64,000 nt of DNA. Source: a virus (taxonomy: Duplodnaviria; Heunggongvirae; Uroviricota; Caudoviricetes). Under the pieces are notes generated by a model that did no database searches, was not told where the DNA came from, and was given only the letters and a program-made list of their open reading frames with translations. How positions within the stretch are numbered: the stretch's first letter is position 1; every line of letters begins with the position of its first letter. Location: IMG/VR virus record IMGVR_UViG_3300027710_000009; one strand, written 5' to 3'. The position numbers and the translations under genes were made by a program. Positions 8,821-56,776 of the stretch are shown piece after piece.

Positions 8821-8833
8821 ACTGAAAAACGTA

Positions 8834-11932: not shown

Positions 11933-11947
11933 TTAATCTACTCCAAT

Positions 11948-12871
11948 TTATGATCCCAGCCCAATGGCGAAGCCCACCACGGTAGCTGTTACGTATTCTC
12001 TTGTTGTTACACTTTTAACTGTTGGGATAGTATTTACTGTTAGGCTGCTATAGCTACCAATATTTGCACTAATGTTACCAGCAGTGATATTACCAGCAAG
12101 CGATGCAGTTCCTTGCACCACAAGATTAGCTCCGACACTTACATTGCCGGTAATGACTGCTTGTCTAGCTGTGACCTGTCCCCAGGTTAAAGTTATATTT
12201 GCCGCAGAAATATTACCAGTCACTGCTAGACTTGTGAGAGTTCCTAGCGAAGTAATATTTGGTTGTGCGGCAGTTTGTGATGTCCCAGTTACTTCAGAAA
12301 ATGTTCCAAAGGATGCTGTGACACTTCTTTTGTTTGTGTTTGATGCAAGTGCAGAAATGTTACCAATTGTGACGTTACCAGTCACGTCATAGGTTCCATC
12401 AGTTTCTAATGCACCAGTACTTACCGAACCTATTAGGTCAGTCACACCCTGAACAGTTAGTGTAGCGGCACTTAAACTTAATTCAATTGTGGCTTGTCTA
12501 GCAAACAGTGAACTCAGGTACGATGATCCACCTACACCCAAACCTCCAGAAATTACCACTGCACCTGATGTGTTACTGGTGCTGGGTGTGGATGCTTGAA
12601 ACTGAGTTGGATCACTAACTGTACCACCCGAGAACAATGTGCCTACTGTGGCTATTTGTACCCCATTAAGAAAGTATGTACCAGTCCAATAACTTGGAAC
12701 GCTGGCTCTTAAAGCAATATTGCCTGTGGCAGTGAGATTACCTGTGGTTAAATTTTGTCGTGCATCGTCAAGGAAAACAAAATTGTCGTTTACCTTGGAA
12801 AAAGCATCACGGATACTATCACCAGTTCCGTCGTTTGGTGTAGACCCTACATTAATTTCACTTATTGCCAT
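11948..12871 (-). CDS. Tail-fibre-like protein (307 aa) with conserved fibre N-terminal motif
   Basis: N-terminus PNDGTGDSIRDAFSKVNDNFVFL matches GDGDDLRTAFDKVNQNFANIY at the N-terminus of the 2277-aa protein. Thr/Ser/Gly/Asn-rich fibrous composition. CAATAAATATG lies upstream. Confidence 0.55.
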   Translation of the reverse strand: MAISEINVGSTPNDGTGDSIRDAFSKVNDNFVFLDDARQNLTTGNLTATGNIALRASVPSYWTGTYFLNGVQIATVGTLFSGGTVSDPTQFQASTPSTSNTSGAVVISGGLGVGGSSYLSSLFARQATIELSLSAATLTVQGVTDLIGSVSTGALETDGTYDVTGNVTIGNISALASNTNKRSVTASFGTFSEVTGTSQTAAQPNITSLGTLTSLAVTGNISAANITLTWGQVTARQAVITGNVSVGANLVVQGTASLAGNITAGNISANIGSYSSLTVNTIPTVKSVTTREYVTATVVGFAIGLGS

Positions 12872-12886
12872 TTCTGTGTCCTATCT

Positions 12887-12899
12887 GCATATTTATTGC
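12887..12899 (-). promoter_or_regulatory. Putative late promoter (CAATAAATATG) upstream of the 307-aa fibre gene
   Basis: Same ATAAATA core about 19 nt upstream of the ATG at 12871. Confidence 0.4.
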
Positions 12900-12911
12900 T
12901 CAATCCTGACC

Positions 12912-13328
12912 TCAAGAGTTAATGGCAATGCGAGTTGCGGTCACTGTAACATCTTGCCCAACATTATTGGTAAAACGGAAATTTATTACATCGCCGGCAA
13001 TAACAGCATCAAATGTTGCCAGCAGGCTGGTTGGCTGGTTGGTTAAACGAGCAAACTCTGTGGTGTAAACATAGGTACCGTCGTGTGTCAGCAGAATTTC
13101 ACTGGCATAAACCACAGTGCTATAAGTTGCTTGAACAACATACTTGGCTGTACGGCTTTGTGATATAGCAAAATTGTCCAGCACAGTGGTTGTAGCCGTT
13201 GGCGCCACCACATTTATTGACCGGGTGTTTACATAAGGATCTGGATCCATGTAAGCCAGCCCACCGAGGTCGCCGTTGGTGGGTACTTGATTTGGTAGTG
13301 GTCCAATGATTAAATTTTGATCAGGCAT
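12912..13328 (-). CDS. Hypothetical virion protein (138 aa)
   Basis: ORF located between two fibre genes in the late module. Confidence 0.4.
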   Translation of the reverse strand: MPDQNLIIGPLPNQVPTNGDLGGLAYMDPDPYVNTRSINVVAPTATTTVLDNFAISQSRTAKYVVQATYSTVVYASEILLTHDGTYVYTTEFARLTNQPTSLLATFDAVIAGDVINFRFTNNVGQDVTVTATRIAINS

Positions 13329-13340
13329 GCGTTGATTCCA

Positions 13341-16300
13341 TTATTGTGTTAGTGTAGATAATTGCGATCCAGTGACCAGTGCTGGCCATACCTGTATTTT
13401 TGCAATAGTACCGTTGATAAAGTTAGTTCCTGGGCCACTGCCAATATTCATTGTATTGATAGATGAGCTTACGTTGCCGGCCACAGCAGTTGTTGTGCCA
13501 GTTCCATTGGCCGCAGTGGCCAATGTGCCAGACTGGAAATATGAAGCCAGTCGGTTGTTGTTGACCACAGTGGTCAAGTTGCCTAACGTAATATTGGCAT
13601 TGGATTCCACTGTGCCAGCTTTGACAATAATTAAATTAGCTGTGCGTTCAGCAGTGGCTGATTTAGTTTCTGCCAGGATTGCAATGCGATTGCTTGCAGT
13701 ACCATCATTGAAACTGACAATAGTGCTACGTCTATTGTTGTCTACCAATGTGCTAGGATTGTAGTCTAGCGTGGCATCAACCAACACACTGTTTTCAACT
13801 TGGTTGTAACGGCGTAAAAATTCAATGCTAGAAACTGTTAGGCTTTCTGAACTGCGTGTGTTGGCAATGGTTGTGGTTGGAATATAACTGGTCGCAAATC
13901 CGCCTTCTTCCACTTGGAATCCATAAATGTACACGCCATTGGTGCCATTGCCAGTATAGTAAACTGATCCACCTGTTGCTGATGCAATTGCCACGTTGCC
14001 GCTGGTATTGGTTTTGTTTATGGTACTTTGGATACGGTACCAGCCATTGGCCAATGTTTGCATGCTACTGCGATAGTCAGGTCCTTGGAAATCAATTGTT
14101 CCATTGGTCAAGTCAAATATTGCTGGGTTTGACTCAGCAAAGAAAACCAATGACACTTGATCTCGTTCTCCGCGTTTGACAAACGCACTGGCTGTGTATG
14201 TGGTACCAGCTGATATTGTTGGAACATAAGGCGCCTGTTGATAAACAGCATGAAGACCGGTACTACTATCTTCTACCAATTTGAAAGCATTATAGTTTCC
14301 ATCCGGACTTGAGGTAGCATGTGCTACTGTTGTGATTGATGCCTGCAAAGTGGTGTATACATTGGCATTGCCAAAGCTGTTGCTTTCTCTATACAAGTTT
14401 GTGCGGCTCTCTTCAATAAGAATACCACGTGAACGCAATGTGCTAGGATCATAGGTAAATCTAGGTGTCTGACTAGGAGCAGTGACCAGGAATCCTCTTG
14501 CATCATAATATGTGGCTGTCCCAGTTCTAGAAAAATTCAATATTGTATCTAGTTTGCGACTGTTTGCAAAATCAAAACTGATTGCTGGACGTGATGGTGG
14601 GCGAACGTTTCCTGCGCCAATCGCCAGCGTGGTAAATGCACCTGAGCTGGGTGTTGCATTGCCAATTGGTGTGTTGTTGATAGATGCTGCCAAGAACGCT
14701 GTGAAGTTCACGTTACCAATAATGGTCGCTTCACCAGCAACATACAGGTTACCACCAATTGATGCGCCGCCTCGTACCTGCAAGGCACCACTTAGCTGTT
14801 GGATATTGGCTGCTGTTATCTGTGCAACGTTGCTGTTGATGTAAACAATTTCTTTACCAGCATTGTAACCTACGTTACCAAAACCAACAATGATATTGCC
14901 AGTAGCACTTATACCACCGCGCACTCGTAATGCCCCGGTGCTCAAACTAGTTGCATTTGCTGCCGCTGAAAGATTACCCACAGTAACAACATCAGCCACA
15001 GTAACAACGTTGGCTGTGACGCTGCCGGATGTACTGTTTGTTGCAGTCAACGTGTTGGTAGTAAATGAGTTGATTACGTTTGCATTGTTGAGCACACGCA
15101 GATCGTTGTTGACCGTGACGTTGCCAGAGCCTATATTACCAACTGTAGCAATAAAGAAAGATCCATCAACCAACAGGTTGTTGCGAACTCTAGTGATACC
15201 CAATCCGCTAATAGCACCAACATTGATCAATGTTGCTTCGCCACCAATATCAAGATTAGTAACAGAACTTGGGAATAGTGAAACGTTTGCTACGTTGGAA
15301 TAAATTCCTGTTCCGCCACCGCCACCAATGTCATTTAGATAGATAGAATTACCAATAAATGCACTGTCTAGTACTTCAAGACTTTTGGCTGAACGTAAAT
15401 TACCTTGTGAAGTAATGAGTCCATCAACGCTTACGTTTCCAACTACACCAAGGCCACCAGCAACTTGCAATGCTCCAGTTGCTGCCTCAATTGATTCCGC
15501 TGTTGATCTAACAAACAATGTGTCAACTGACAGTGTGTTTGTGATTGACGCAGAACTTGCCTGGAAGTTGGCGCTGAATGCATTTACATTGGAACCCAAC
15601 ACAATCAACTGATTAGTCACATTCAAACTGCTCAGTGCATTTACATTGTTGACCAGCGCAGTGTTTCCAGACACTGTCAAGTTGGCAATTTGTGCTGTGC
15701 CAGTTACCTGTGTGTTGGCTGATACAGAGTTACCAGTTGTGTTTGTGGACACAGCATTGACATTGCCTACACCAATATTACTAGTTACGCTCAAATTTGG
15801 CAAAGTGCCAATGCTGGTTATAAACGGTTGTGCATTTGTTAGCAGTGTTCCGTCTATGTGTGTAAAGGTGCCTTTGAATGCGCTGATATTGGCTGATGTT
15901 ACATTTCCACCAATGTTTGCTTCAAGCGTAATATTTGCTGTGGTAACATTCAAGTCACGCAACACTGCACCGGCAGCAGTGATGTTTGCAGTGTTGACCA
16001 CATTAATAACTGACAACGATGTCAATGCACCAAGTTCAGTGATATTTGGTTGGAAGTTGTTGACTATGTAACCACGCAGTAGAGTACTAACATTACCAAC
16101 TGCAGGGGCTAGTACAGTGCCAGCAACATCTAGATTCCCTAACAGTCCAACTTCAGTAATAAAAGGTTGCGAATTGGTTTGTAGTGTGCCTTGTACTTGT
16201 GTAAACGTGCCTTTGCTTGCGCTGATGTTACCAGCAGTTACGTTACCAGCAATGTTTGCCTCTGAGCCAATATTGGCGTAAGTTGCATTGATGTCTTTGA

Positions 16301-19300
16301 ATGTTGCACCATTGGCAGTTACATTTGCAAGTGCAGTTGTGCCAGTTACTGCCAATCCAGACAGTGTACCAATAGTAGTGATGTTGGTTTGGCTGGCATC
16401 AAGCACGGCACCGCGTATGTTGGTAAATGTACCAGTTGCGCCACTAACGTTGCCAGTTGTGACATTGCCTGTCACGCCAAGTGAAATTAATGTGCCAACT
16501 GACGTGATATTTGTTTGACTAGCAGTTTGTAGTGTACCATACACATCGGTAAACACACCATTTGTTGCAGTGACATTGGCATTGGCAGATACATTTTCAC
16601 CACGTACTAAAGTTGTAGCAGTGACATTTGCAAAATGACCAGTTGTGGCATTGACATTGCCTGCATCAACATTGCCAGTCACATCCAAGGTAGTCAAAGT
16701 GCCTACACTGGTAATGAAAGGTTGTGCGTTGTTTAGAACAGTACCAGTAAAGCTAACCAAATTGGCAATACCAGTCACTGTTAGATTAGAAGTTGTTAGA
16801 TTTGCTGTAGCGGTAATATTCTCTACAGCAAATGCAGATCCTGCACCACCGCCTTGGATTACCAATCCGCCAACGGTTGCTGTGCCAGTTACATTCAAAT
16901 TGCCAAGATTACCAACAGTGGTGATGTTGGGTTGTGATGCAGTGAGAACAGTTCCAACAATATTGGTAAATGATCCAGTAGTGCCACTTACATTGCCTGT
17001 GCCAACATTGCCTGTTACAGACAATGTGCCTAGTGTACCAACTTGAGTAATGTTTGGTTGTAGTGCTGTACGCAACGAACCTGACAGGCCAGTAAATTCA
17101 CCAACTGTGGCTATTACGTTCCCAGACGCAAACACATGTTCTGGTCGTAATATTTGGATGTTACCGTTGGTTGCGTTTATGTCTTGTATTGTAGCGCCAG
17201 CTACTGTAATGTTGGCTGCTGTCACTGCACCGGTTGTTGTAACAGAAGTCAGTGTACCAACGCTTGTGATATTTGGCTGTGCGGCTGTTTCTAGTGTTCC
17301 GCCAACAATGCTGAACGATCCTTTAGAGCCACTTACATTGCCTGTACTCACATTGCCTGCAATGGCAAATGCGTTTGGTGTGGTCCATACACCATCATAA
17401 ATGGTTAGATTACCGTATGCTCCGCCTTGACCAATAAGTATACCAGAACCACGTGCGGCGGTTGAGTTGACAGCACCATTGGCCAGTGTTAGGTCTTTGT
17501 CGCTGGTGGTTACATTGCCTGCGCTGACCGTGGTGGTGTTGCCGTTTACAAACAAGTTTCCGGTAACATAAAAATCTTGTGCTACAAATTGACTACCAGT
17601 AATACTAACTGGGCCATCAACTGACAATGCTGACAAGGTACCAATAGCGGTAATGAATGGTTGTGCATTGGTTTTAACTGTTCCGTTAAGATCAGTAAAA
17701 TAACCAATGTTGGCAAATACCTCCTCAGTCTTGATGCCCACCGTGGCGTTAACAATATTGCCGTCAATGTTGCCATCTGCATATATTCTGCCCAGGACCC
17801 AAACATTGCCTGAAAGAATATTGCCGGATATTGTGGCAGTAGGACCAGTCAAGTTACCAACCAGTGTAGGGGCTGATATTTGTGTGTTGGCAACAACATT
17901 GGATGCCACAAGATTGCCACTGGTGGTAATTGATGTCAGTGTGCCAACGCTGGTTATATTGGGTTGCTGAGCAGTGAATAGTGTGCCACTAATGTTGCTA
18001 GAAACTAATGTGTTTGCTAGAGTAAAATCACTAACCACAGTGCCAATTACTATGGCACTGTTGACAGAATTGATTATGTTTCCAATAACACCTAGGTTGC
18101 CAACTACTATTAGGCTTGTGAGATTACCAACTGTGGTAATGTTAGGTTGTTCGGCTGTTAATACAGTACCCGAAAGTCCAGCAGCTTGTACCGTACCAGA
18201 AGCAGTTACATTCCCGCTGGTGGTATTGCCAGTAACAGCCAAGTTGACCAATGTACCAACTCGAGTGATGTTGGTTTGTACCGGAGTAATCAAAGTGCCA
18301 GCCACAGTATTAGCTGTCAATCGGTTTGTGGCAATGTTGGCATTAAGGGTGTTGATGTTGCCAGAATCAATATTGCCTGTCACAGCAAGCGAACCAAGAG
18401 TACCAACTGTGGTAATATTTGGTTGTGCAGTTGTGAGCAAGTTTCCAACAATGTTGGTAAATGTACCTGTAGTACCACTTACATTTCCAGTTGTGACATT
18501 ACCTGTCACGGTCAACGATCCAAGCGTACCAACGCCGGTGATACCTGCTTGTACACCATTGGTCAATGTGCCATCAACAACAGATGCAGTTACTCTGCCA
18601 GCAGTGATATTGCCGGAGACCACCAGGTTGCCAAGAGTACCAACTGTGGTAATGTTTGGCTGTGCGGCAGTTTGCACAGTGCCAGACACCACGCTAAAGT
18701 TGCCATGGTAACCTTGGATGTTGCCAACCAAAACGTTGCCTGATAAATTGGGTACTGCGATTGCGGCAATGGCTGCATTGGCCGCGGCAATGTTGGCCTG
18801 CAAAGAACTGATAGCACTGCCTTGTGCTGACGCATTGCTTGTGAGAATATTTAGACTGGTAGTCTGGGCCCCAGCATTGGCTGTGAGCGTGTTAATTTGT
18901 GTTGCTTGTGTTGCGGCATTGGCAGTCCATGCTACAGTAACAGCCGCAATGGCTGCATTGGCCGCATCAATGTTGGCACGTAGTTCAGATATCTGTATGT
19001 TGGCAACTGTTATGTTTGCGGCGGCAATAGCTGAATTGGCCGCGGCAATGTTGGCACGTAGAGAATTGATTGCCAATGCTTGCACACCAGCGTTGCCACT
19101 GGTGCTAGTAGTCAAACTGCTGATTGCTGAATCAGTATAAGCCTTGAGCGCAGAATTTGCTGTTACAATGGCCGCATTGGCTGCTGTGACGTTGGCACGT
19201 ATGCCTGCAATACTATTGTGTTGAGCACCTGCGTTGGCATCTGTTTGTGCTCTCAAAGAAACTATGGCCGCATTGGCTGCTGTGACGTTGGCACGTAGAT

Positions 19301-20174
19301 TGTCAATTTCAACGTTGGCCGCTGACATTTGTGCAGTGGTCACAACACCACTGGTGATTATGGCATTGGCTGCGTTAATGTTTGCTCTAAGAGCATTGAT
19401 CTGGACAGCTTGAGAAACAGCATTGCTCCAGACACTACTGACGTTGGATAGTAGTACGCTGACATTGCTGGTCACTGCTCCAATTGCCAGAGCTTGAGTG
19501 GTAGCATTTGATGTTAAAGTAGTGATGCTACTTTGCACAGATACAATGCTGGAATTTGCCGCTTCAATATTGGCACGTAGGTTGCCAATTTCAACATTGG
19601 CTGCGGCCACACGTGCATTAGCACCCAACACAGCATTGCTGATTGGTGTTAGGTTAACAACAGTGTTCATACTACTGTTGTCAGAGAATCTCAGGGTGTT
19701 GACTGTGAGGGTTTGTCCAACCACAAGGTTTTCGGTGACCGAAGCGGGACCGTCTACAACCAATGCGCCATTCACAGTGGCTGTGTTGGTTACTGTGATG
19801 TTACCAGCAGTGATTTCGGCATTGCTAATGGTAGCATTGGCAATGGTGCCGCCGGTTACAGTTATATTGGGCAATGGGCCCAGACTGCTTATTGCGGCGT
19901 CAGTGTAGGCTCGATCAGCGGCAGAATTTGCTGCCATACTTGAACGCAGTTGGCTTACGTCAACATTGCTTGCTACACCAGTTACGTCAAACCATGCTAG
20001 CTGTACATTACCTTGTTTTCCAGCAACGGAATACACCAACGTGTTGGCTTGAACTGCTACATTTCCGCTGTAGATGTTAGCGAAGTTTTGGTTGACTTTG
20101 TCAAACGCCGTGCGAAGATCATCGCCATCCCCCGCACCAGCGCCACTACCAATATCTATTATCTGCTGAGACAT
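13341..20174 (-). CDS. Giant repetitive fibrous protein (2277 aa), probable long tail fibre or whisker
   Basis: 6.8-kb ORF with a conserved fibre N-terminal motif. There are about 14 copies of a module AQPNIT(S/T)VGTLxxLxVTGNVxxGNVSG, plus an N-proximal array of LRANIxAANAAI coiled-coil repeats. Extreme Ala/Asn/Thr/Val/Gly composition. CATAAATATC lies 20 nt upstream. Confidence 0.6.
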   Translation of the reverse strand: MSQQIIDIGSGAGAGDGDDLRTAFDKVNQNFANIYSGNVAVQANTLVYSVAGKQGNVQLAWFDVTGVASNVDVSQLRSSMAANSAADRAYTDAAISSLGPLPNITVTGGTIANATISNAEITAGNITVTNTATVNGALVVDGPASVTENLVVGQTLTVNTLRFSDNSSMNTVVNLTPISNAVLGANARVAAANVEIGNLRANIEAANSSIVSVQSSITTLTSNATTQALAIGAVTSNVSVLLSNVSSVWSNAVSQAVQINALRANINAANAIITSGVVTTAQMSAANVEIDNLRANVTAANAAIVSLRAQTDANAGAQHNSIAGIRANVTAANAAIVTANSALKAYTDSAISSLTTSTSGNAGVQALAINSLRANIAAANSAIAAANITVANIQISELRANIDAANAAIAAVTVAWTANAATQATQINTLTANAGAQTTSLNILTSNASAQGSAISSLQANIAAANAAIAAIAVPNLSGNVLVGNIQGYHGNFSVVSGTVQTAAQPNITTVGTLGNLVVSGNITAGRVTASVVDGTLTNGVQAGITGVGTLGSLTVTGNVTTGNVSGTTGTFTNIVGNLLTTAQPNITTVGTLGSLAVTGNIDSGNINTLNANIATNRLTANTVAGTLITPVQTNITRVGTLVNLAVTGNTTSGNVTASGTVQAAGLSGTVLTAEQPNITTVGNLTSLIVVGNLGVIGNIINSVNSAIVIGTVVSDFTLANTLVSSNISGTLFTAQQPNITSVGTLTSITTSGNLVASNVVANTQISAPTLVGNLTGPTATISGNILSGNVWVLGRIYADGNIDGNIVNATVGIKTEEVFANIGYFTDLNGTVKTNAQPFITAIGTLSALSVDGPVSITGSQFVAQDFYVTGNLFVNGNTTTVSAGNVTTSDKDLTLANGAVNSTAARGSGILIGQGGAYGNLTIYDGVWTTPNAFAIAGNVSTGNVSGSKGSFSIVGGTLETAAQPNITSVGTLTSVTTTGAVTAANITVAGATIQDINATNGNIQILRPEHVFASGNVIATVGEFTGLSGSLRTALQPNITQVGTLGTLSVTGNVGTGNVSGTTGSFTNIVGTVLTASQPNITTVGNLGNLNVTGTATVGGLVIQGGGAGSAFAVENITATANLTTSNLTVTGIANLVSFTGTVLNNAQPFITSVGTLTTLDVTGNVDAGNVNATTGHFANVTATTLVRGENVSANANVTATNGVFTDVYGTLQTASQTNITSVGTLISLGVTGNVTTGNVSGATGTFTNIRGAVLDASQTNITTIGTLSGLAVTGTTALANVTANGATFKDINATYANIGSEANIAGNVTAGNISASKGTFTQVQGTLQTNSQPFITEVGLLGNLDVAGTVLAPAVGNVSTLLRGYIVNNFQPNITELGALTSLSVINVVNTANITAAGAVLRDLNVTTANITLEANIGGNVTSANISAFKGTFTHIDGTLLTNAQPFITSIGTLPNLSVTSNIGVGNVNAVSTNTTGNSVSANTQVTGTAQIANLTVSGNTALVNNVNALSSLNVTNQLIVLGSNVNAFSANFQASSASITNTLSVDTLFVRSTAESIEAATGALQVAGGLGVVGNVSVDGLITSQGNLRSAKSLEVLDSAFIGNSIYLNDIGGGGGTGIYSNVANVSLFPSSVTNLDIGGEATLINVGAISGLGITRVRNNLLVDGSFFIATVGNIGSGNVTVNNDLRVLNNANVINSFTTNTLTATNSTSGSVTANVVTVADVVTVGNLSAAANATSLSTGALRVRGGISATGNIIVGFGNVGYNAGKEIVYINSNVAQITAANIQQLSGALQVRGGASIGGNLYVAGEATIIGNVNFTAFLAASINNTPIGNATPSSGAFTTLAIGAGNVRPPSRPAISFDFANSRKLDTILNFSRTGTATYYDARGFLVTAPSQTPRFTYDPSTLRSRGILIEESRTNLYRESNSFGNANVYTTLQASITTVAHATSSPDGNYNAFKLVEDSSTGLHAVYQQAPYVPTISAGTTYTASAFVKRGERDQVSLVFFAESNPAIFDLTNGTIDFQGPDYRSSMQTLANGWYRIQSTINKTNTSGNVAIASATGGSVYYTGNGTNGVYIYGFQVEEGGFATSYIPTTTIANTRSSESLTVSSIEFLRRYNQVENSVLVDATLDYNPSTLVDNNRRSTIVSFNDGTASNRIAILAETKSATAERTANLIIVKAGTVESNANITLGNLTTVVNNNRLASYFQSGTLATAANGTGTTTAVAGNVSSSINTMNIGSGPGTNFINGTIAKIQVWPALVTGSQLSTLTQ
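15600..18700 (-). repeat. Protein-level tandem module repeats inside the 2277-aa fibre gene
   Basis: Recurring (A/S)QPNIT-VGTL ... TGNV-TGNVSG-TG-FTNI modules in the translation. All plus-strand ORFs across this region are mirror-frame artefacts. Confidence 0.6.
18760..19640 (-). repeat. Nucleotide-level tandem repeats (~60-90 nt units) encoding LRANIxAANAAI coiled-coil repeats
   Basis: Repeated strings aatggc(t/c)gcattggc(c/t)gc...aatgttggcacgtag are visible at 18770, 18950, 19030, 19160 and 19270. Confidence 0.6.
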
Positions 20175-20189
20175 TATTCACCCTCATAT

Positions 20190-20203
20190 TTGATATTTAT
20201 GAA
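20190..20203 (-). promoter_or_regulatory. Putative late promoter (CATAAATATC) upstream of the 2277-aa fibre gene
   Basis: ATAAATA core 20 nt upstream of the ATG at 20174. The RBS GAGGG follows. Confidence 0.4.
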
Positions 20204-20229
20204 GGTGTTGGGATAAAGGAATTTGGCTT

Positions 20230-20559
20230 TTAGACGCTGAAACTGCTACCGCAACCACATGAAGTTTGCGCATTAGGGTTGATTATCTTGAATTCTGCCC
20301 CCATGAGATCTTCCTTATAATCCACTGTAGCCCCTTGTAAGTACTGACTGCTCATACTATCTACCAACAACGGAACACCGTCGAAATCCATAGTAAAGTC
20401 ATCTTCGTTGGTTTCTTCGTCTAGGGTAAAGCCATACTGCATACCCGAACACCCTCCGCCCTGCACAAATATGCGCAGTTTAATCTTGGGATTGTTTTCC
20501 TCGGCCAGGATGTCCCGAATTTTTTCCACTGCACTAGGATTGAGTTCTAGTATATTCAT
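20230..20559 (-). CDS. iscA: Fe-S cluster insertion/carrier protein IscA/ErpA (HesB family)
   Basis: Motifs [15 protein letters not shown] and the C-terminal CGCGSSF are diagnostic. Start refined to the ATG at 20559 (MNILELNPS), which has a GGAGG RBS 8 nt upstream. The longer track ORF is an N-terminal over-extension. Confidence 0.85.
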
Positions 20560-21119
20560 TTGATGCCTCCATATATTCTTCGATTCACAGTTTCCCAGTT
20601 TATAATACGCCATATATTTTTTAAGTATTTGGCCTTGTCTGCTTGATAATCCAGTGCCCAGGCATGTTCCCACCAATCTATTAGCAGTGCAATGTCTTTT
20701 TTGATCTGATGATTTTTGATTGTTTTGATTTCGCCAGATCTGCTGAGATACACCCAGCCTGACCCTTGTATGCTCATGGCTTGTTTTTCCAGTTGTTTTT
20801 GGAAATCAAGATATGTACCAAATTTACGATTGATCAGTTCTGCACTGGCGCCTTCAGGTTTGTTGCCAGACACAGGTGATTGTAGTTGTGTAAAATATAT
20901 GTTGTGTAGAAACGCACCTGCTTCGTTGAAGTCTGCATCGCCTTCGCCGGCATTGTATCGATCAACATAACCTCGATACAACGTGCCGTAGTGATAGTCC
21001 AGGGTATCTTTGGATTTCACAGGATCAAGATCTGTGCGTTTGTAAGGCAATGTTGCCTGCACAAGATCTTTCTTTTCCTTGCTTTCCACAAGTGAAATTA
21101 GTTGTCGTATGGTACTCAT
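20556..21119 (-). CDS. sod: Fe/Mn-family superoxide dismutase
   Basis: Motifs LPY..DLDP, the [13 protein letters not shown] metal-ligand His, and [12 protein letters not shown] (SOD signature D-x-W-E-H-AYY). The ligand residues H26/H81/D/H are conserved. Start is probably MSTIRQL; an alternative ATG lies at 21164. Confidence 0.75.
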
Positions 21120-21123
21120 ACGA

Positions 21124-21345
21124 CTATTTAGTACGATATATGATCCTACCGCGGGACAAATCATACGGGCTCATTTCTAGTTCAACTGTGTCGCCCATGA
21201 GCACTTTGATATTATTTTGGCGTAATTTGCCGCCAAGATACGCAATTATTTTATGTTGGCTATTTTCGAGTGCCACTCGGAATGTAGCATTGGGCAGTAC
21301 TTCTTCTACCACACCAGTTACATTAACAAATCCTTCTTTAGCCAC
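21124..21345 (-). CDS. infA: Translation initiation factor IF-1
   Basis: MAKEGFVNVTGVVEEVLPNATFRVALENSQHKIIAYLGGKLRQNNIKVLMGDTVELEMSPYDLSRGRIIYR aligns along its full length with bacterial IF-1 (S1-like OB fold). Confidence 0.85.
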   Translation of the reverse strand: MAKEGFVNVTGVVEEVLPNATFRVALENSQHKIIAYLGGKLRQNNIKVLMGDTVELEMSPYDLSRGRIIYRTK

Positions 21346-21373
21346 AGGGGCACCTTCTCCTATATGTTAGCCG

Positions 21374-21766
21374 TTATCCACGGCGCATTTTACTTATGTC
21401 AATCGCTTCTTGATCTGAAAAGACCGGCACTGCGTTTGACTTGTGCATTGTAGCAATGCCTTTTACCATAGTGCCAGTATAGACCTTGGCAGGTGCTAGA
21501 GTAGCATTACCACCAGTATCTCTACTAGGAATGTGTCGTGTGCTACGCTCGGCGGGCACAGTTAGTTTGTAGTCTAATTTTTGTTTCTTGGGTGCAGGCG
21601 CTACTTTGGCAGGACCCCACTTGGCCATAAGAGCAGACCAACTGTCATCCAGCTCACGTGCCTTGGCTGCATGAGCCGCTGATGCAAACTTTTTCTTACC
21701 GCGCTTTTTGCCAGTAAGACTCAAACTAGGATGTGCAAGGTGCATTGTCATTTTGGGTTTCTCCAC
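21374..21766 (-). CDS. Hypothetical basic protein
   Basis: ORF with a Lys/Ala-rich N-terminal half. Confidence 0.35.
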   Translation of the reverse strand: MEKPKMTMHLAHPSLSLTGKKRGKKKFASAAHAAKARELDDSWSALMAKWGPAKVAPAPKKQKLDYKLTVPAERSTRHIPSRDTGGNATLAPAKVYTGTMVKGIATMHKSNAVPVFSDQEAIDISKMRRG

Positions 21767-22153
21767 TCATCTTTAGCTATTTTAGCTTCTTGTACAATTT
21801 TTGTCAACAGATGCCAAACAGGGTGTGCAAAATAACCCACAATGGCGCCGTAGATGAACCATTCAACAGCATGCCAAAACTCAATCATAGATGCACTTCC
21901 CATGCGCCAGTTACGTGATTCCAATGGCGTGTGTCGTAGATTTGGAAAGATATGCTGTGACCAAACACAGCTAGTTCTAGGGTAAGCCCAGCATGGCTTT
22001 GTCGCCGAGTATAACTGAATTCAAATCCAATCAGTGTGCGTGTTTGCAACAGCTCTGCTTCCCAGGCCAGGTGGTCGGTGATCAGGCCTGACCGATTCCA
22101 TAGATTGGCAAAGGGTCGGCCCCAGGGGTTACTTAAACCAACATTGATGTAGA

Positions 22154-22654
22154 TCATTTTTTAGAATTTACTTTGGCTTGACGTTGACGACGGAATATTT
22201 CCACATCCTTGCTAGCACTTTGTAGCACAGCAGAATAGTTGTAGGCCGCCTGAGGTGTCATAATGATGGAGGCTTCATATTTGACATAGCCTCTTGTAAG
22301 CAGTTCCCAAATGATTTGCCAACGGTTTCGGCTCCACCAGTTGGTTTTTTGTGTGGTGTATGTTGTGACCGTGACTCCTGTTTCATCTGCTTCAATGCAG
22401 ACGTCGTGGGCGCAATCAGTTGAACAGCAGTCACACGGAACTGTATAGAATCGAGCATCACCAAAGTCCTTGTGCAGTAAGATCCCTTCAGCGGGAGTTT
22501 GAATTTCCAATTTGGACCTCCAGTTGATCTTGTATTTTAGAAAACACTTTGTCCTCAAGTATAAAGAATTTTTCAGGATAACGAGACATGATAGATTCTT
22601 TAACTTCTTGCACTGTGGCACCTTGTCCGAGAAAGTCGTTGTTTTCGCCATCAT
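22154..22654 (-). CDS. Hypothetical Cys-rich protein; start uncertain
   Basis: The ORF overlaps the preceding gene by ~165 nt, so the true start probably lies downstream at about 22480. Contains CDCCSTDCAHDVC. Confidence 0.3.
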   Translation of the reverse strand: MMAKTTTFSDKVPQCKKLKNLSCLVILKNSLYLRTKCFLKYKINWRSKLEIQTPAEGILLHKDFGDARFYTVPCDCCSTDCAHDVCIEADETGVTVTTYTTQKTNWWSRNRWQIIWELLTRGYVKYEASIIMTPQAAYNYSAVLQSASKDVEIFRRQRQAKVNSKK

Positions 22655-23742: not shown

Positions 23743-24221
23743 TATTTGTTGTTTCCTGTGTCTGTTAAAGTGATAGTGCTGAGATCCATGCTACCAAGAC
23801 TCACAATATCATTTGATGTCAGCGGAGCAATGTTAACATAGTTATGTCCACCGAGCATTGTGCTGCCGCTGCCACTGCCAATAACACTGAGAGGTCCTGC
23901 CATGATTCCACTGAGATTTAATGTCATATCAGTGGTATTGTCAGAACTGGTAAACAAATCACTCTGCCCGTTGTTTTGCAGTATCTGTATGTCACGTTTC
24001 ATTTCTGTCATTTCACGTTCCATCCAGTCCAGTCTTGTTACCATGTCAGAGAATGGCCCGGGTTCTTCTTTTTTCTGTTGTGCCAGCGAACTTAAAAATG
24101 CCAGTCTGTGAAAGGCGCTTTTTACTGCATCGCTGTCGCTGGTAATGATATCATCAAATATGCCAGCAAGTTCACGAATTTGTTCTTCGGTAATCTTCAT
24201 ACAAATTTCAGTAGGAACCAA
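23742..24221 (-). CDS. Hypothetical protein (159 aa)
   Basis: ORF. Confidence 0.4.
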   Translation of the reverse strand: MVPTEICMKITEEQIRELAGIFDDIITSDSDAVKSAFHRLAFLSSLAQQKKEEPGPFSDMVTRLDWMEREMTEMKRDIQILQNNGQSDLFTSSDNTTDMTLNLSGIMAGPLSVIGSGSGSTMLGGHNYVNIAPLTSNDIVSLGSMDLSTITLTDTGNNK

Positions 24222-24436
24222 GTCCTGGCCTGCTCCGTGTAAAAGTCAATGTGTATCTCTGTTTCACCCCAGTGCCCGCCATCCATTTTTGGAACCCATG
24301 GACGGTGTTCACGAGGCATGAATCCCAGTTCGTCACGCATGCGACCTCGTAGCATGATCATGCTTTGCCCAAATTCTGCGCGAAGTTGTTCACGGATTCG
24401 GTTCCATTCTGCATGTGTGAGTTCATGGTGTTTCAT
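24197..24436 (-). CDS. LKW-tail family small protein (member 1; ends FLLKFV)
   Basis: C-terminal module I-x-F-x-x-E-x-x-x-x-F-L-L-K-F, shared with eight downstream paralogues. Confidence 0.5.
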   Translation of the reverse strand: MKHHELTHAEWNRIREQLRAEFGQSMIMLRGRMRDELGFMPREHRPWVPKMDGGHWGETEIHIDFYTEQARTWFLLKFV

Positions 24437-24437
24437 G

Positions 24438-24749
24438 CTAGATCCATTTGAGTGTCATTAGTATAGCATGTTCTTTGTTTTTGAACAAGAACAACATGTT
24501 GTCTTCGGTGGGATGTGTTACATAATTTTCGCCCGGAAGTCCAAAGTTTTCCACAGCCCAGGCACATGCTTCATTCCAAAAGTAACTTGTGTCTTTGCCT
24601 TTTTCCCATTTTAATTCTACTGGAGTCCAGTCTGCGCATTCTTCCAAGGTTGCCTCCCAAAGCAAGTTGTTGATAATCTCACGATCTATTTGCTCAGCCA
24701 TCTCTTTGGCAAGATTCTGCATGAGTTCCTGTTCTAAATCTAGCTCCAT
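24438..24749 (-). CDS. LKW-tail family small protein (member 2; ends MTLKWI)
   Basis: C-terminus LFLFKNKEHAILMTLKWI. Confidence 0.55.
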   Translation of the reverse strand: MELDLEQELMQNLAKEMAEQIDREIINNLLWEATLEECADWTPVELKWEKGKDTSYFWNEACAWAVENFGLPGENYVTHPTEDNMLFLFKNKEHAILMTLKWI

Positions 24750-24958
24750 TTTAGTGTAAACAGCGTGGCTTCTTCGTCTTCACCAAACAACAACCCTGCC
24801 GCTTCTTTTTCGCCCACCGATGTGGGATTGCTTTTGATCCACACCTGATACGCACCGTAGTCACGTTTGATCCACTCCCAGAACTCCACATCGATCTTGT
24901 GGTCACGGTGATACTCTTGTAGTTTGTCGTAGAATGGTTCAACAGCAATAGTGATCAT
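24740..24958 (-). CDS. LKW-tail family small protein (member 3; ends FTLKWS)
   Basis: C-terminus LLFGEDEEATLFTLKWS. Confidence 0.55.
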   Translation of the reverse strand: MITIAVEPFYDKLQEYHRDHKIDVEFWEWIKRDYGAYQVWIKSNPTSVGEKEAAGLLFGEDEEATLFTLKWS

Positions 24959-25164
24959 AGTTCTTTTATGGTCAGCATGGTTGCCCAGGCTTCTGCATCG
25001 CCATTGAACATGAATTGCAGTTCGCGATTGTTTTGATCCACACGCCAGGTGTAGTCTCGACCCATGACAATGCCTTGTTCTTTGAGCCAGCGAGAAATAG
25101 TCACGCCACGGTGAGATTCTTGTTCTGCGCTGCCTTCCCGGAACGGAAGTGTAACTATCTGCAT
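24955..25164 (-). CDS. LKW-tail family small protein (member 4; degenerate, ends LTIKEL)
   Basis: C-terminus LQFMFNGDAEAWATMLTIKEL. Confidence 0.5.
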   Translation of the reverse strand: MQIVTLPFREGSAEQESHRGVTISRWLKEQGIVMGRDYTWRVDQNNRELQFMFNGDAEAWATMLTIKEL

Positions 25165-25165
25165 G

Positions 25166-25372
25166 CTACCCCCATTTTAGCAAAAATGCTGTCATATCTT
25201 TTTCGTGGCGAAACTTGAATGTATCGTAACTGGTTCGCCGGCCACATCTATGTTCATAACACCATTCCCCAATTTTATCCAGTACATTTTGTGTGTACCC
25301 GGGACTACTGTAGTTGGCCAATCCCTCAACCACACGTAGTGTCATTTTTTCTCGAACAAACTTTATAGCCAT
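25166..25372 (-). CDS. LKW-tail family small protein (member 5; ends FLLKWG)
   Basis: C-terminus FKFRHEKDMTAFLLKWG. Confidence 0.55.
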   Translation of the reverse strand: MAIKFVREKMTLRVVEGLANYSSPGYTQNVLDKIGEWCYEHRCGRRTSYDTFKFRHEKDMTAFLLKWG

Positions 25373-25605
25373 TTCAGTATAAAAACCTCTGCGTCTCTTG
25401 CATCTTCAAAGTAAAACAAAAAACCTGCGGTAGGATTCCACTCTGGTCCACGCAACTGATATCTACCAAATCCTGCATACTCATTCACCCAATTGGTCAA
25501 GTCATGACAGTTAGGGCGTTGTTTCAGCATGCGTTCCCAAGGCATAAACACCTGTGTCCAGTGTGCAGGAAACGGCAAGCTGTCATCCTTGATCATGACG
25601 ATCAT
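25363..25605 (-). CDS. LKW-tail family small protein (member 6; ends FILKWL)
   Basis: C-terminus FLFYFEDARDAEVFILKWL. Confidence 0.55.
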   Translation of the reverse strand: MIVMIKDDSLPFPAHWTQVFMPWERMLKQRPNCHDLTNWVNEYAGFGRYQLRGPEWNPTAGFLFYFEDARDAEVFILKWL

Positions 25606-26041
25606 GCATGGTTACTCCATTCAAGTGATCCAGCTCATGCTGATAGCACACAGCGGCAAGTTCTTCTAGTTCTTCTTCATGCCAGTCACCGTGTATGTCT
25701 TGATATCTGGCCCAGATCTTTCTTGGACGATGTGTAAGTACATATTCATCGGGAAAACTTAAACAACCTTCCTGGCATTCAAACAGTTGATCTGTTGTGG
25801 CATCAGAAAATTCAGGATTGAAACAGGTCCTGGTCAATCCGTTAACACTCATCACAAACACTCTGCGGCTGATGCCTACCTGTGGTGCAGCCAAGCCAAT
25901 TGCATCACTGTCAGTCATAAACTGGTGCATCATGGTGGCCAAGCGCATGAGTGGCCGTGCATCCTCAAAGGTGACAGGCTTGGCAACATTTTTTAACACA
26001 CGATGTGTGAGTTTGAGTTTGTTAGGTATAATCATAGCCAT
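25583..26041 (-). CDS. def: Peptide deformylase
   Basis: All three PDF motifs are present: GLAAPQVG, EGCLSFP and HELDHLNG. Confidence 0.9.
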   Translation of the reverse strand: MAMIIPNKLKLTHRVLKNVAKPVTFEDARPLMRLATMMHQFMTDSDAIGLAAPQVGISRRVFVMSVNGLTRTCFNPEFSDATTDQLFECQEGCLSFPDEYVLTHRPRKIWARYQDIHGDWHEEELEELAAVCYQHELDHLNGVTMHDRHDQG

Positions 26042-26286
26042 TTCAGTGTAAATATCAGTTTATCTCGTTCTTCGACAAAATGAAATATATATTTGTCGTG
26101 ATTGTCTCGACCTGCCCAAAACATACACCACGCACCGTCGGTGTTTTTACCTATAGCTTCCCAACGCTTGCCAAACTGTTGCTGGCACCATGCACCGGCG
26201 TCTCTGTGTTTCTTAGCGTCGATTAGTACACTATGTTCTAATTGACGGAATGCCCTGCGATGTCTGCGTGTTTGTGCTGAGTTCAT
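26032..26286 (-). CDS. LKW-tail family small protein (member 7; ends FTLKWL)
   Basis: C-terminus YIFHFVEERDKLIFTLKWL. The likely ATG start is at 26286 (MNSAQ); the track start at 26295 is a GTG. Confidence 0.5.
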   Translation of the reverse strand: MNSAQTRRHRRAFRQLEHSVLIDAKKHRDAGAWCQQQFGKRWEAIGKNTDGAWCMFWAGRDNHDKYIFHFVEERDKLIFTLKWL

Positions 26287-26465
26287 TACGACCACTTGAG
26301 AGAAAATAACATGGCATCTTTTTTGTGCGTGAATTTGAAATGATACTGTGTGTTATGGAATAGACTTTCCAAACTAAGTTGCCAGTGTTTGTATCCAATA
26401 TTTTTCACTGCCCATGCGCCGGCTTGGGTGGCTTTATCTGCGTCTGTTAAGATTATGGTTGTCAT
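26286..26465 (-). CDS. LKW-tail family small protein (member 8, 59 aa; not in the ORF track)
   Basis: Own translation: MTTIILTDADKATQAGAWAVKNIGYKHWQLSLESLFHNTQYHFKFTHKKDAMLFSLKWS. TAATG coupling with member 7. Coordinates approximate. Confidence 0.45.
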   Translation of the reverse strand: MTTIILTDADKATQAGAWAVKNIGYKHWQLSLESLFHNTQYHFKFTHKKDAMLFSLKWS

Positions 26466-26471
26466 AGTACA

Positions 26472-26501
26472 ATTATAGCATACTATTACTTATTTTGTCA
26501 A
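26472..26501 (-). promoter_or_regulatory. Sigma70 early promoter (TTGACA-N18-TATAAT)
   Basis: Minus strand: TTGACAAAATAAGTAATAGTATGCTATAAT. Confidence 0.5.
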
Positions 26502-26710
26502 TCTACCCATTTAAGCATGAACCAATTGGCATGCGCCAATCGCGGGAATATAAACACAGTGGTATCCAAACTGGTGTCCACTTCTCCCCACCCTGGCCCC
26601 CACATTTCAAAGCACCAGGCAATCAATTCTGCCCGTTCTTCTCTAGTGACTCTACCAGCGTTTAGGTACCATGAGCCACTGCTATTTGTCAGGGTTATTT
26701 TGCTCAACAC
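26498..26710 (-). CDS. LKW-tail family small protein (member 9; ends FMLKWVD)
   Basis: C-terminus VFIFPRLAHANWFMLKWVD. A perfect sigma70 promoter lies at 26472-26501, inside or upstream. Confidence 0.5.
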   Translation of the reverse strand: MLSKITLTNSSGSWYLNAGRVTREERAELIAWCFEMWGPGWGEVDTSLDTTVFIFPRLAHANWFMLKWVD

Positions 26711-37465: not shown

Positions 37466-37975
37466 TTAACTGTTAAGAACTTTAGCAACTGAATTCATAA
37501 CTGATGCAATGCGCCCAATGTCACGAAGTTGTTCCACTGTGTAGCCTTCTGAGTTCTTCAATGTGTCATAGTGTGCCTTAACACAGAAGTGACACTTGCC
37601 CACAATACTTGCGGCCAACGAGAATGCTTCAAAGTTTGCTTTGGTAGTTCCACCATGACTTGCAATAGCATTCATGCGTAACTGTGCTGGCAAACCTTTG
37701 AGTGCGGCATCATCTGCCATTTCAACATAGGGATACCATACGTTGTTCTGTGCCATGATGCTGGCGGCTGTCATTGCTGACTCTGCATGTACAGGAGCAT
37801 CTGCTAAAATTACTGACAGAATTTTGCCATTGCCTGTTGCGGCCAGTGCGGCTACGGCACATCCCATGGCCACATCTGCGTCTAGTGTGCTACGCAGTAA
37901 CACCGCATCTAGATTTAATTTTGTATCTTTGGCGTAGTCTGGTAACGCACCTTTTACTGATTCAATAAAATTCAT
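37466..37975 (-). CDS. AhpD-like / carboxymuconolactone decarboxylase-family protein
   Basis: CHFCVKAH matches the AhpD C-x-x-C-x-x-x-H active-site motif. ATG start at 37975 (MNFIESV); the longer track ORF starts at a TTG. Confidence 0.6.
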   Translation of the reverse strand: MNFIESVKGALPDYAKDTKLNLDAVLLRSTLDADVAMGCAVAALAATGNGKILSVILADAPVHAESAMTAASIMAQNNVWYPYVEMADDAALKGLPAQLRMNAIASHGGTTKANFEAFSLAASIVGKCHFCVKAHYDTLKNSEGYTVEQLRDIGRIASVMNSVAKVLNS

Positions 37976-37976
37976 T

Positions 37977-38189
37977 TTAATATTTTCCAGAAACAAAGTA
38001 TTTTTGCAACACTTCTAGTTTATCTTCATATTCCGCAATGTGCGCAATTTCAGTTTCCACAGCCGCCATCCAGTCAGTGTGATCATGAATGGCCATAGGG
38101 TTGTTCAACATGATCTCCACATTCATTTTGTGCTTGGTCAGTTGTGCTGAAAAGTTTGCTTCCAATGCACTAAGTAATTGTTGTTTCAT
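37977..38189 (-). CDS. Hypothetical protein
   Basis: ORF. Confidence 0.35.
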   Translation of the reverse strand: MKQQLLSALEANFSAQLTKHKMNVEIMLNNPMAIHDHTDWMAAVETEIAHIAEYEDKLEVLQKYFVSGKY

Positions 38190-38369
38190 CTATGCTCCTT
38201 GATAGAAGTTCAGTTCATCTTCTTCAGCAAGTTCTGGGGTGTTCCAAACATTACGATTGTTCCACTCGCGAATACGATCCAATCGTTCCTGTTCTGTCAT
38301 TTCATAACATCTAGGATTACGATCGGGCTGTCGCAATGTTTCAACACCTCGTTGAAATATTTCTAACAT
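38190..38369 (-). CDS. Small hypothetical protein (59 aa; not in the ORF track)
   Basis: Own translation begins MLEIFQRGVETLRQPDRNPRCYEMTEQERLDRIREW. TAATG coupling with ahpC. Coordinates approximate. Confidence 0.3.
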   Translation of the reverse strand: MLEIFQRGVETLRQPDRNPRCYEMTEQERLDRIREWNNRNVWNTPELAEEDELNFYQGA

Positions 38370-38908
38370 TAAAGTGTTTCACCGCCAACTGTACGGTTAC
38401 ATGCACACAGCTCGCCAGTTTGTAACGCATCAAGAACACGAAGTGTTTCTTCTGGGCTACGGCCTACGTTCAAGTTGTTGACTGTAACGTGTTGGATAAC
38501 GTTGTCTGGATCAACGATGAATGTTGCGCGAAGTGCGGCACCTGCTGGAGCATAGAAAACTCCTAATTGATCGATAAGACTCAACTCGCCACGTTGTGTG
38601 TCAGCGAACTGGTTGTGTGTGATTTTCTTCAAATCAGCATGAGCTGTTTGCCAGCTGACTTTACAGAACTCATTGTCTGTTGAACCTGTAAGCAGGACTG
38701 CATCACGGTCGGCAAAGTCACCTGTTAGTTTGTCGTAGGCTACAATTTCTGTAGGGCAAACGAATGTGAAGTCTTTTGGATAGTAAACAATTACCTTCCA
38801 CTTGCCGGGAAAGCTCTCATCTGTAATTTCGAAGAACGCATCTTCTGGCTGTCCAGGCTTGACACCCGTGACTGCGAATTTTTCTAACTTGTGTCCAACT
38901 GTTTTCAT
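38369..38908 (-). CDS. ahpC: Peroxiredoxin (AhpC/TSA family)
   Basis: Peroxidatic-Cys motif FTFVCPTEI, with a thioredoxin-fold alignment along the whole length. Confidence 0.85.
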   Translation of the reverse strand: MKTVGHKLEKFAVTGVKPGQPEDAFFEITDESFPGKWKVIVYYPKDFTFVCPTEIVAYDKLTGDFADRDAVLLTGSTDNEFCKVSWQTAHADLKKITHNQFADTQRGELSLIDQLGVFYAPAGAALRATFIVDPDNVIQHVTVNNLNVGRSPEETLRVLDALQTGELCACNRTVGGETL

Positions 38909-43019: not shown

Positions 43020-43026
43020 AGAAGTA

Positions 43027-43052: not shown

Positions 43053-43461
43053 ATGGTTGTTTATTTGACAGGGTAAGTCCTACCCCGCTGGTTTCGCTGT
43101 TTAGGCGAAAGCTGCCTCAGTGCGAGCAGACTTGGAACCGCCGAAACGGAAACCTTTGCCTACTGTTACTTTAACACCAGATTGTGTATTTGCTTTTGCA
43201 TTTACTTTTTTTGCGTCTACGGCCGAGTTCCCCCAACCCTACGGTTTCTGCCTTACCGTGCTGTCCACTTGCTTACTCTTTGCCCTGTCGAAACCATGAC
43301 TGGCCCATCATAAAAGGACTAGTGCAAACACTACCAGTACAACAACTACCCCTATCGCCAAACTACCCAGGTTGTCATTCATACCAATCTCCTTATGGTG
43401 GACCAGGCGGGAGTCGAACCCGCGTCCAGAACACTTTTCTATCCGCTTCATACAGCAATAA
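43027..43461 (-). ncRNA. ssrA: Circularly permuted (two-piece) tmRNA gene, organised as acceptor piece, then spacer, then coding piece
   Basis: The 3' end, ...UCUGGACGCGGGUUCGACUCCCGCCUGGUCCACCA at 43396, is nearly identical to the tmRNA 3' end GGACGCGGGUUCAACUCCCGCCAGCUCCACCA. An 89-nt spacer follows. Then GGGCCAGUCAUGGUUUCGACAGGG at 43306 matches the tmRNA 5' end GGGGCUGAUUCUGGAUUCGACGGG. The two form a 7-bp acceptor stem with a G3:U70 pair. Downstream, UAGAC-GCA introduces an open tag frame with no start codon, ending ...TEAAFA-UAA. The gene has its own promoter and terminator. Confidence 0.7.
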
Positions 43462-56185: not shown

Positions 56186-56776
56186 TTATCGCTTGTCTAG
56201 TACCCGATCTGCAAGCCCGTATGCCACGGCCTCTTGTGCGCTCATGAAGTTGTCACGTTCCATGTCTGCCAAAATTTCATCGTAAGTACGCCCCGCAGTG
56301 TTGTGATCCACGTAGATTTGCGTTAGATTGCGCTTCATTTTGAGGATTTCACGCACCTGGATTTCCATGTCTGTAGCTTGGCCACCAGCACCACCCGAAG
56401 GCTGATGAATCATGTGACGTGCATTGGGCAGTATAAGACGCTTGCCAGCGGCTCCTGCTTGAGCTAGCAAACTGCCCATGGAGCAGGCCTGCCCCATCAC
56501 AATAGTAGATATGTTAGGTCGAATAAACTGCATAGTGTCATAGATAGCCATGCCAGCAGTAACCACCCCACCAGGGCTGTTGATATAGAACAGAATATCT
56601 GCATCTGGATCTTCGCTTTCGAGAAACAATAGTTGAGCCACAATCAAACTAGCAGAATGCTCGTTGACATCTGTGTCTAGCATGACAATACGGTCTTTGA
56701 GCAGGCGACTGTAGAGATCATAACTGCGCTCGCCTGCTGATGTGCGTTCAAGCACCATGGGTACCAAATTTGGCAT
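56186..56776 (-). CDS. clpP: ATP-dependent Clp protease proteolytic subunit ClpP
   Basis: Full-length ClpP with the catalytic triad context GQACSMGS...HQP...D. A perfect sigma70 promoter lies upstream. Confidence 0.9.

Follow-up and report, generated by a model that had tools for sequence, protein, structure and literature searches.

The DNA analysed here, a 64,000-nucleotide stretch of the Caudoviricetes record IMGVR_UViG_3300027710_000009 (the window), encodes at positions 20230-21345 a shortened homologue of Fe/Mn superoxide dismutase (SOD) next to ErpA, an A-type carrier of iron-sulfur (Fe-S) clusters. We lean towards the view that this minimal SOD and ErpA work as a functional pair that guards and supplies Fe-S clusters, and that the third gene of the interval, for translation initiation factor IF-1, belongs to a separate translation set. 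An earlier note on this DNA had read the three genes as one auxiliary unit. That grouping did not hold up: among related phages the pairing of SOD with Fe-S genes is strong and recurrent, whereas the adjacency of IF-1 depends on the lineage. The tight packing that the note described is borne out by the map of open reading frames (ORFs), in which the interval consists of exactly three co-directional ORFs on the minus strand, in the 5'->3' order IF-1, SOD-like, ErpA:

21124..21345, minus strand: IF-1 (infA-like translation initiation factor), 73 aa, GTG start, AGGAG upstream
20556..21119, minus strand: short-hairpin Fe/Mn SOD homologue, 187 aa, ATG start
20230..20559, minus strand: ErpA-type A-type Fe-S cluster carrier, 109 aa, ATG start

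The SOD ATG begins 4 nt past the IF-1 stop (TAG), and the lack of a Shine-Dalgarno sequence there suggests that ribosomes reinitiate after terminating on IF-1. Gene callers picked other SOD starts on identical contigs (21164, giving 202 aa, and ~21089, giving 177 aa); we favour the 187-aa form as the most likely choice, and its residues 5-12 are kept across the family. At the other end, the SOD TGA and the ErpA ATG overlap as ATGA, an arrangement that implies coupled translation, and with GGAGG placed 7 nt before the ErpA start the two genes look translationally coupled. A further 55 nt separate ErpA from a gene for a 2,277-aa fibre-like protein. The GC content of the block is 0.44, the same as in the remaining window. 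Compared with relatives, all three genes show strong purifying selection (dN 0.09-0.29, saturated dS (>=2), dN/dS ~0.05-0.11; ~0.1 for IF-1), and the low dN with saturated dS marks IF-1, SOD and ErpA as functional genes, not decaying cargo.

The domain families to which the earlier note had assigned the three proteins (PF01521, PF00081/PF02777 and PF01176) all score above their Pfam cut-offs, and the motifs that it quoted are present, CGCGSSF in ErpA and D-x-W-E-H, as DWWEH, in SOD. The three gene identities hold, but the note's term host-type does not fit the SOD, which is a divergent short-hairpin form, falls below the SodA and SodB equivalog cut-offs, and has viral nearest relatives.

SOD and its Fe-S neighbours

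The case for a pair comes first from gene order. For synteny we took the 80 IMG/VR loci whose SODs matched best (60-87% identity), 70 of which had enough downstream sequence. An A-type carrier gene follows SOD on the same strand within 2.5 kb (<=2.5 kb) in 58 of these 70, and in one locus (L004) the SOD and carrier genes overlap by 4 nt. The Fe-S partner is of several types. ErpA either abuts SOD directly, as in the window, or lies past an inserted small gene; in the closest relative (L003) SOD is followed by a 7Fe-type ferredoxin (Pfam Fer4) and ErpA; and in 29 loci the genes after SOD are IscU (PF01592, NifU_N, 183 bits) and IscA. On one marine contig (L084) SOD precedes SufB (PF01458, 248 bits), a SufC-like ATPase and a split SufS-like desulfurase, with the SOD itself frameshifted in that assembly. 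A virus-borne SUF system such as this would itself be notable.

IF-1 behaves differently. It lies upstream of SOD in 20 of 63 loci of the best-80 set and in 9 of 11 loci of a more distant set, where ErpA comes after SOD in 5, and the full trio recurs in the distant relatives L100-L103 and L107. On these comparisons the full trio is an old syntenic block of one sub-lineage, but what lasts across lineages and across non-orthologous Fe-S systems is the placing of SOD beside Fe-S biogenesis genes. For annotation, the value of this result is that the real signal (SOD with Fe-S genes) is separated from the looser one (IF-1).

The identity of the carrier is clear from curated profiles. ErpA scores 74.4 bits against the Pfam cut-off of 26.3 (PF01521) and 160.7 bits against 117 for the ErpA equivalog (NF010147, NCBIfam), with the IscA and SufA equivalogs below their cut-offs. 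Its cluster-ligand cysteines C37, C101 and C103 (C-x(~63)-C-G-C) align with those of HI1723 and Aq_1857, and Haemophilus influenzae HI1723 is also the best solved match (126 bits). The phage protein thus resembles the ErpA, or ATC-II, group (E. coli ErpA; H. influenzae HI1723, PDB 2APN) in its single 109-aa domain, three cysteines and CGCGSSF end, and is ~53% identical to enterobacterial ErpA (tblastn); unlike those proteins, it comes from a phage gene whose translation looks coupled to that of a SOD. By this likeness it is predicted to bind and transfer Fe-S clusters. The closest 120 database relatives of the phage ErpA are all metagenomic, several of them on contigs of 170-374 kb. Sixteen metagenomic contigs, the longest of them 371 kb, encode an identical protein and keep the IF-1/SOD/ErpA/fibre gene order of the window.

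Two of the loci show a small Cys-rich gene (CxxC…CxxC) on the opposite strand. In L073 (6539-6910, minus strand) it is inserted between SOD and ErpA and has no Pfam match, and in L053 (7180-7467, minus strand) the same gene is positioned after IscA. A SOD-ErpA gap of ~340 nt in other loci suggests the same insert there. The gene may encode a mobile or regulatory zinc-ribbon protein.

The marine contig with the SUF genes (CAJIZS010000002.1, 1-8510) is binned as Methylophilaceae and also carries an HNH-like gene, ClpS and a QueD-like gene; it looks like phage sequence mis-binned into a bacterial metagenome-assembled genome (MAG). Two MAG sequences, a 'Polaromonas' fragment from Lac Pavin and a 'Methylophilaceae' contig from the Fram Strait, gave the only hints to the donor lineage; both look like mis-binned phage.

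A short-hairpin SOD

The C-terminal domain of the SOD is recognized readily (PF02777, 84.3 bits against a cut-off of 20.9), and the N-terminal domain in part (PF00081, 36.8 bits against 27, but with only profile positions 6-41 of 82 matched). No PHROGs family matches the protein. Alignment to solved SODs identifies H43, H72, D148 and H152 as the four metal ligands, so the conserved ligands that the earlier note had recognized are correctly aligned. An alignment of 40 family members shows no substitution at these four positions, and in a set of 81 sequences each of them is at least 95% conserved. Also invariant in the 40-sequence alignment are Y51 (the Tyr34 equivalent), Q118-G-S-G-W, N136-H137 and D148-W-W-E-H.

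What sets the protein apart is its α-hairpin. Ligands 1 and 2 are 29 residues apart, against 47-55 in canonical SODs, because ~20-25 residues of the hairpin tip are deleted: alignment to any solved SOD, or to E. coli SodA or SodB, leaves 18-25 positions unfilled between the two hairpin helices, and the full-length hairpin is absent. What is lost is the distal end of the hairpin, which in known SOD structures is remote from both the active site and the dimer interface. An AlphaFold2 model (pLDDT 89.2, pTM 0.84) has helices at residues 37-56 and 62-77 followed by a normal α/β domain, with low confidence in a ~20-residue N-terminal extension, and its 50 best Foldseek matches in the PDB are all Fe/Mn SODs (TM 0.75-0.84). 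The short SOD is placed within the family by fold, and superoxide dismutation and dimer formation are predicted for it.

The solved enzymes of Pyrobaculum aerophilum (1P7G) and Perkinsus marinus (2CW2), cambialistic P. gingivalis SOD (1QNN) and B. fragilis SodFM2 (8AVL) share with the phage SOD the two-domain fold, the four ligands, Tyr34, GSGW and D-x-W-E-H. Relative to solved SODs the phage protein is only ~30% identical, lacks the hairpin tip, has Leu in place of His30 and carries the N-terminal extension. The second-sphere position is taken by H137, whose aligned counterparts are a His in 1P7G and 2CW2 and, in the MnSOD 4BR6, the Gln of 'ANQD'; the phage SOD thus has His at the Gln146(Mn) position, as in these second-sphere-His SODs. 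Its residue at the Fe-type Gln69 position is Ala, and the equivalents of Tyr173 and Tyr174 (E. coli MnSOD numbering) are Trp and Ala. From the second-sphere His and what is known of the family, the enzyme is probably Fe-dependent or cambialistic.

The short form is not a one-off. There are 3,714 SOD relatives in the protein database, at least 587 IMG/VR stretches encode SOD, and a search of 1.84 billion cluster representatives returned 3,688 related clusters. At least 25 of the clusters with recognizable motifs show the short spacing, with 25-29 residues between the first two ligands and usually a Leu where canonical SODs have His30, and their identity to the phage SOD ranges down to ~32%, which argues for a diverse subfamily. 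These comparisons point to short-hairpin SODs as a large, diverse and mostly viral subfamily. The nearest SODs from isolates, at 41% identity, are those of PA5oct-like Pseudomonas jumbo phages and Vibrio phage 2.275.O. They are of the short form too: PA5oct, Callisto and MIJ3 (Arenbergviridae) and Vibrio 2.275.O have the same short hairpin, and some records annotate the protein as sodB or as Mn/Fe SOD. A scan of viral contigs with a 38%-identical short SOD (P0274) gave no matches.

Matches to sodB, infA and erpA in phage collections at housekeeping-like identity were discounted, as they bear bacterial strain names or are small unannotated fragments. Among such 'phage' records, 'Acinetobacter phage MD-2021a', 'Staphylococcus phage SA 1306 Kay' and Salmonella strain records are probably bacterial, and they inflate the apparent occurrence of these genes in phages.

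SODs have been listed among the auxiliary genes of Lake Erie (PMC12542629). Searches of the open-access literature turned up no account of a SOD subfamily with a short hairpin, nor of any phage Fe/Mn SOD that goes with Fe-S genes, and neither the short form nor this linkage seems to have been described before. The individual kinds of gene are already published, namely phage IF-1, A-type carriers and SOD annotations. A-type carrier, IscU and sufA genes have been reported from marine viromes and environmental viral genomes (PMC5332604), and VOG07561 'ErpA' is common in environmental Caudoviricetes and absent from isolates (PMC11835377). The locus studied here has the A-type carrier in common with those viral Fe-S genes (PMC5332604), its relatives have IscU, and ClpP is encoded in the same genome, as that literature notes; unlike the published cases, it has a short Fe/Mn SOD gene consistently placed ahead of the carrier gene, and the genome is a metagenomic jumbo phage of ~370 kb. 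The earlier note had called SOD and IF-1 uncommon in phages, which is true for cultured phages only. The number of SOD relatives in metagenomes and the published reports show otherwise for the rest, and the genes of the trio are common, not rare, in uncultured jumbo phages.

As a natural minimal Fe/Mn SOD with a core of ~165 residues, the protein could be a tool for studying the part that the hairpin tip and the His30/Tyr pair play in catalysis.

What the pair may do

Inside cells superoxide attacks chiefly Fe-S enzymes, inactivating the [4Fe-4S] clusters of dehydratases, and ErpA is the carrier on which E. coli depends aerobically. The minimal, probably Fe-using SOD would be active and co-expressed with ErpA; by removing superoxide it would spare exposed [4Fe-4S] clusters, and those still forming on scaffolds, from destruction, and ErpA would supply apo-proteins with clusters under aerobic conditions. 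The H2O2 arising from SOD would be disposed of by two further products of the window, whose genes lie near each other:

38369..38908, minus strand: AhpC/TSA 2-Cys peroxiredoxin (PF00578, 70.2 bits; FVCPTE peroxidatic motif)
37466..37996, minus strand: AhpD-type alkylhydroperoxidase of the CMD family (PF02627, 34.6 bits; CHFCVKAH, that is CxxC-x3-H)

The AhpD-type protein is likely the reductant partner of AhpC, and by their predicted activities SOD, AhpC and AhpD would give the phage a full chain from superoxide through peroxide to water. The outcome would be that host or phage Fe-S enzymes stay working in an infected aerobic aquatic cell. Users of Fe-S clusters relevant to phages include radical-SAM and queuosine enzymes, nucleases, and the ferredoxins for ribonucleotide reductase activation. 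IF-1 would be part of a translation-takeover set with peptide deformylase (PDF), transfer-messenger RNA (tmRNA) and ClpP, and would sit in the block through inherited gene order, perhaps also for expression timing. We infer the enzymatic activity, metal preference, co-transcription and physiological role of the pair from the features described here. If true, a widespread module of stripped-down SOD and Fe-S scaffold or carrier would mean that giant phages of oxic waters protect their cofactor supply, besides boosting it.

Several observations weigh against such a pair. Common descent within a single phage clade, and not selection for linkage, could account for much of the conserved gene order. 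The SOD neighbours in the PA5oct-like phages and Vibrio phage 2.275.O are ClpS, ClpX and IbpB, or IF-3, S21 and a ClpS-like gene, with no Fe-S gene, and a fusion of SOD with an Fe-S domain was not found among the longer cluster representatives, some of which carry unrelated C-terminal extensions. These points would suit a doubtful but serious alternative, in which three independent auxiliary genes are neighbours through the shared ancestry of one jumbo-phage clade and have separate roles: IF-1 would work on ribosomes, SOD against oxidants in general and ErpA as an all-purpose Fe-S carrier. The related loci are indeed phylogenetically close because they were chosen by SOD similarity, and the variable adjacency of IF-1 in the two sets fits this alternative as well. 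However, the SOD partner switches among non-orthologous systems (ErpA, IscU-IscA, ferredoxin-ErpA, SufBCS) while the pairing persists, which is hard to get from inherited order alone, and the ATGA overlap implies coupled translation. The varied partners and the coupling together argue against pure coincidence.

The protein itself supplies the second group of points against a SOD/ErpA pair that works by dismutation. The SodB equivalog gives 86.2 bits against 348 and the SodA equivalog 49.5 against 363 (NCBIfam), so neither cut-off is reached. Where gateway His30 would be, the family has an invariant Leu (L47). Ala replaces the Tyr that reaches across the interface (the Y174 position of E. coli MnSOD), and the hairpin tip is lost; with His30, its Tyr partner and the tip all gone, catalysis could be slow or absent. 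A SOD-like protein that is no longer a dismutase might then act as a metal-binding Fe-S accessory, be it an iron donor, a chaperone or a scaffold- or carrier-docking partner. Its steady position directly upstream of scaffolds or carriers from three Fe-S systems would agree with such a role, as would the lost residues and the scores far under the curated SOD cut-offs. We nevertheless regard this as decidedly improbable: the ligands, Tyr34, the Glu bridge of WEH, GSGW and the second-sphere His are invariant and make up the full constellation of active archaeal and protist SODs, which argues against loss of activity, and the presence of AhpC and AhpD in the window fits genuine superoxide removal.

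Between these possibilities lies an extension of the pair that we think unlikely, in which the short SOD is a dedicated and hitherto unrecognized component of virus-encoded Fe-S biogenesis that docks on IscU, ErpA or SufB. It would be a long shot, too, to suppose that the docked SOD shields the nascent cluster locally or hands over bound iron, the pair being a minimal, oxygen-hardened Fe-S maturation module evolved in jumbo phages. Proof that SOD is such a dedicated partner in Fe-S biogenesis would raise the value of the finding.

The genome gives two more grounds for caution about the proposed SOD/ErpA pair. Pfam searches of ~50 other ORFs turned up no obvious Fe-S client in the 64-kb window, and scans for promoters and terminators around the block did no better than on shuffled sequence, so the boundaries of the operon are drawn by inference. 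Further Fe-S biogenesis genes were not found in the window either (tblastn of IscU and ferredoxin).

Finally, the antioxidant genes might mainly keep the infected cell alive against external oxidative stress, such as ultraviolet photochemistry or the phagolysosome bursts of protists, with nothing specific to Fe-S clusters. Such a role has been proposed for the reactive oxygen species defence genes of freshwater phages, among which SODs are listed (PMC6802176). Although the co-occurrence of SOD, AhpC and AhpD in the window agrees with it, this explanation leaves unexplained why SOD lies beside Fe-S assembly genes and not beside AhpC and AhpD, which are 17 kb away. A cytoplasmic Fe/Mn SOD without a signal peptide does not intercept external superoxide, and we hold the idea to be very improbable.

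The jumbo phage and its translation genes

The window has phage hallmarks throughout, with rIIA, a GP88 domain, giant fibre genes and a 1,032-aa virion structural protein that is ~44% identical to that of the T4-like cyanophages S-CAM1 and S-CAM3. Its relatives are IMG/VR contigs of 265-355 kb, and from these features the window would be part of an uncultured, rIIA-bearing jumbo phage of ~370 kb. Contamination or a bacterial origin of the window was considered and rejected on the strength of rIIA, the virion protein and the uniform GC content. A megablast search of 19500-22500 against 50,697 phage records gave no match, which means that no sequenced isolate is close.

The identity of IF-1 is well supported. 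It scores 75.2 bits against the Pfam cut-off of 30.2 (PF01176) and, above the cut-off again, 96.7 bits against 61.15 for the infA equivalog (TIGR00008, NCBIfam). Residues 1-73 align end to end with solved bacterial IF-1s of 71-73 aa, with one 1-residue insertion, in agreement with the full-length S1 fold that had been claimed. Its tblastn matches, at 46-55% identity, are in Lak phages, Sinorhizobium phage Phosso and uncultured huge phages. The phage IF-1 is predicted to bind the 30S A site and to act in initiation. The other translation-related features that the earlier note had placed elsewhere in the window are all real:

25583..26041, minus strand: PDF, def (PF01327, 133.3 bits; TIGR00079, 106 bits against 103.95; phrog_2890)
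43171..43457, minus strand: permuted (two-piece) tmRNA (Rfam RF04321, 97.3 bits against a gathering score of 47)
56186..56776, minus strand: ClpP protease subunit (PF00574, 260.7 bits)

A translation set (IF-1, PDF, tmRNA and ClpP) thus coexists with a redox set, as had been suggested, and the redox side is made stronger by AhpC and AhpD. These sets may affect the translation or redox state of the host. IF1, IF3, S21, PDF and tmRNA have been reported in huge phages (Al-Shayeb et al. 2020, PMC7162821). As in those phages, full-length IF-1, PDF and tmRNA occur here in a genome of >200 kb, with nothing qualitatively different save the block with SOD and ErpA.

ARAGORN calls the tmRNA at 43010-43488 on the minus strand, with an unusually long tag peptide ending in AAFA. 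In cells, permuted tmRNA is confined to a few lineages, the alpha- and some beta-proteobacteria and the cyanobacteria. The permuted type could therefore serve as a hint to the host.

Upstream of the block lies one more gene of the same strand:

21374..21766, minus strand: p130, a conserved neighbour of the block (PHROG 27048; phrog_27048, 103 bits; 125-130 aa)

It precedes IF-1 in many related phage loci and may be the first gene of the block's transcription unit. A near-consensus sigma-70-like site, TTGACA-17-TAAAAT, lies just upstream of p130 at 21807-21779; such sites are no commoner than in shuffled sequence. The p130 C-terminus is conserved (…GIATMHKSNAVPVFSD.EA..ISKMRRG).

On the other side of the block, three giant ORFs (2,110, 1,032 and 2,277 aa) occupy 2461-20174 on the minus strand. 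The 2,277-aa protein is highly repetitive, its units being rich in Ala, Asn, Thr and Gly; in relatives, too, its conserved N-terminus is encoded immediately after ErpA. The PDF gene, for its part, is flanked by nine tandem, highly divergent small paralogues (24197-26710, minus strand; 59-103 aa, 13-28% identity), which share a C-terminal F.F....A..F.LKW, with the stop codon right after it, and an invariant Trp.

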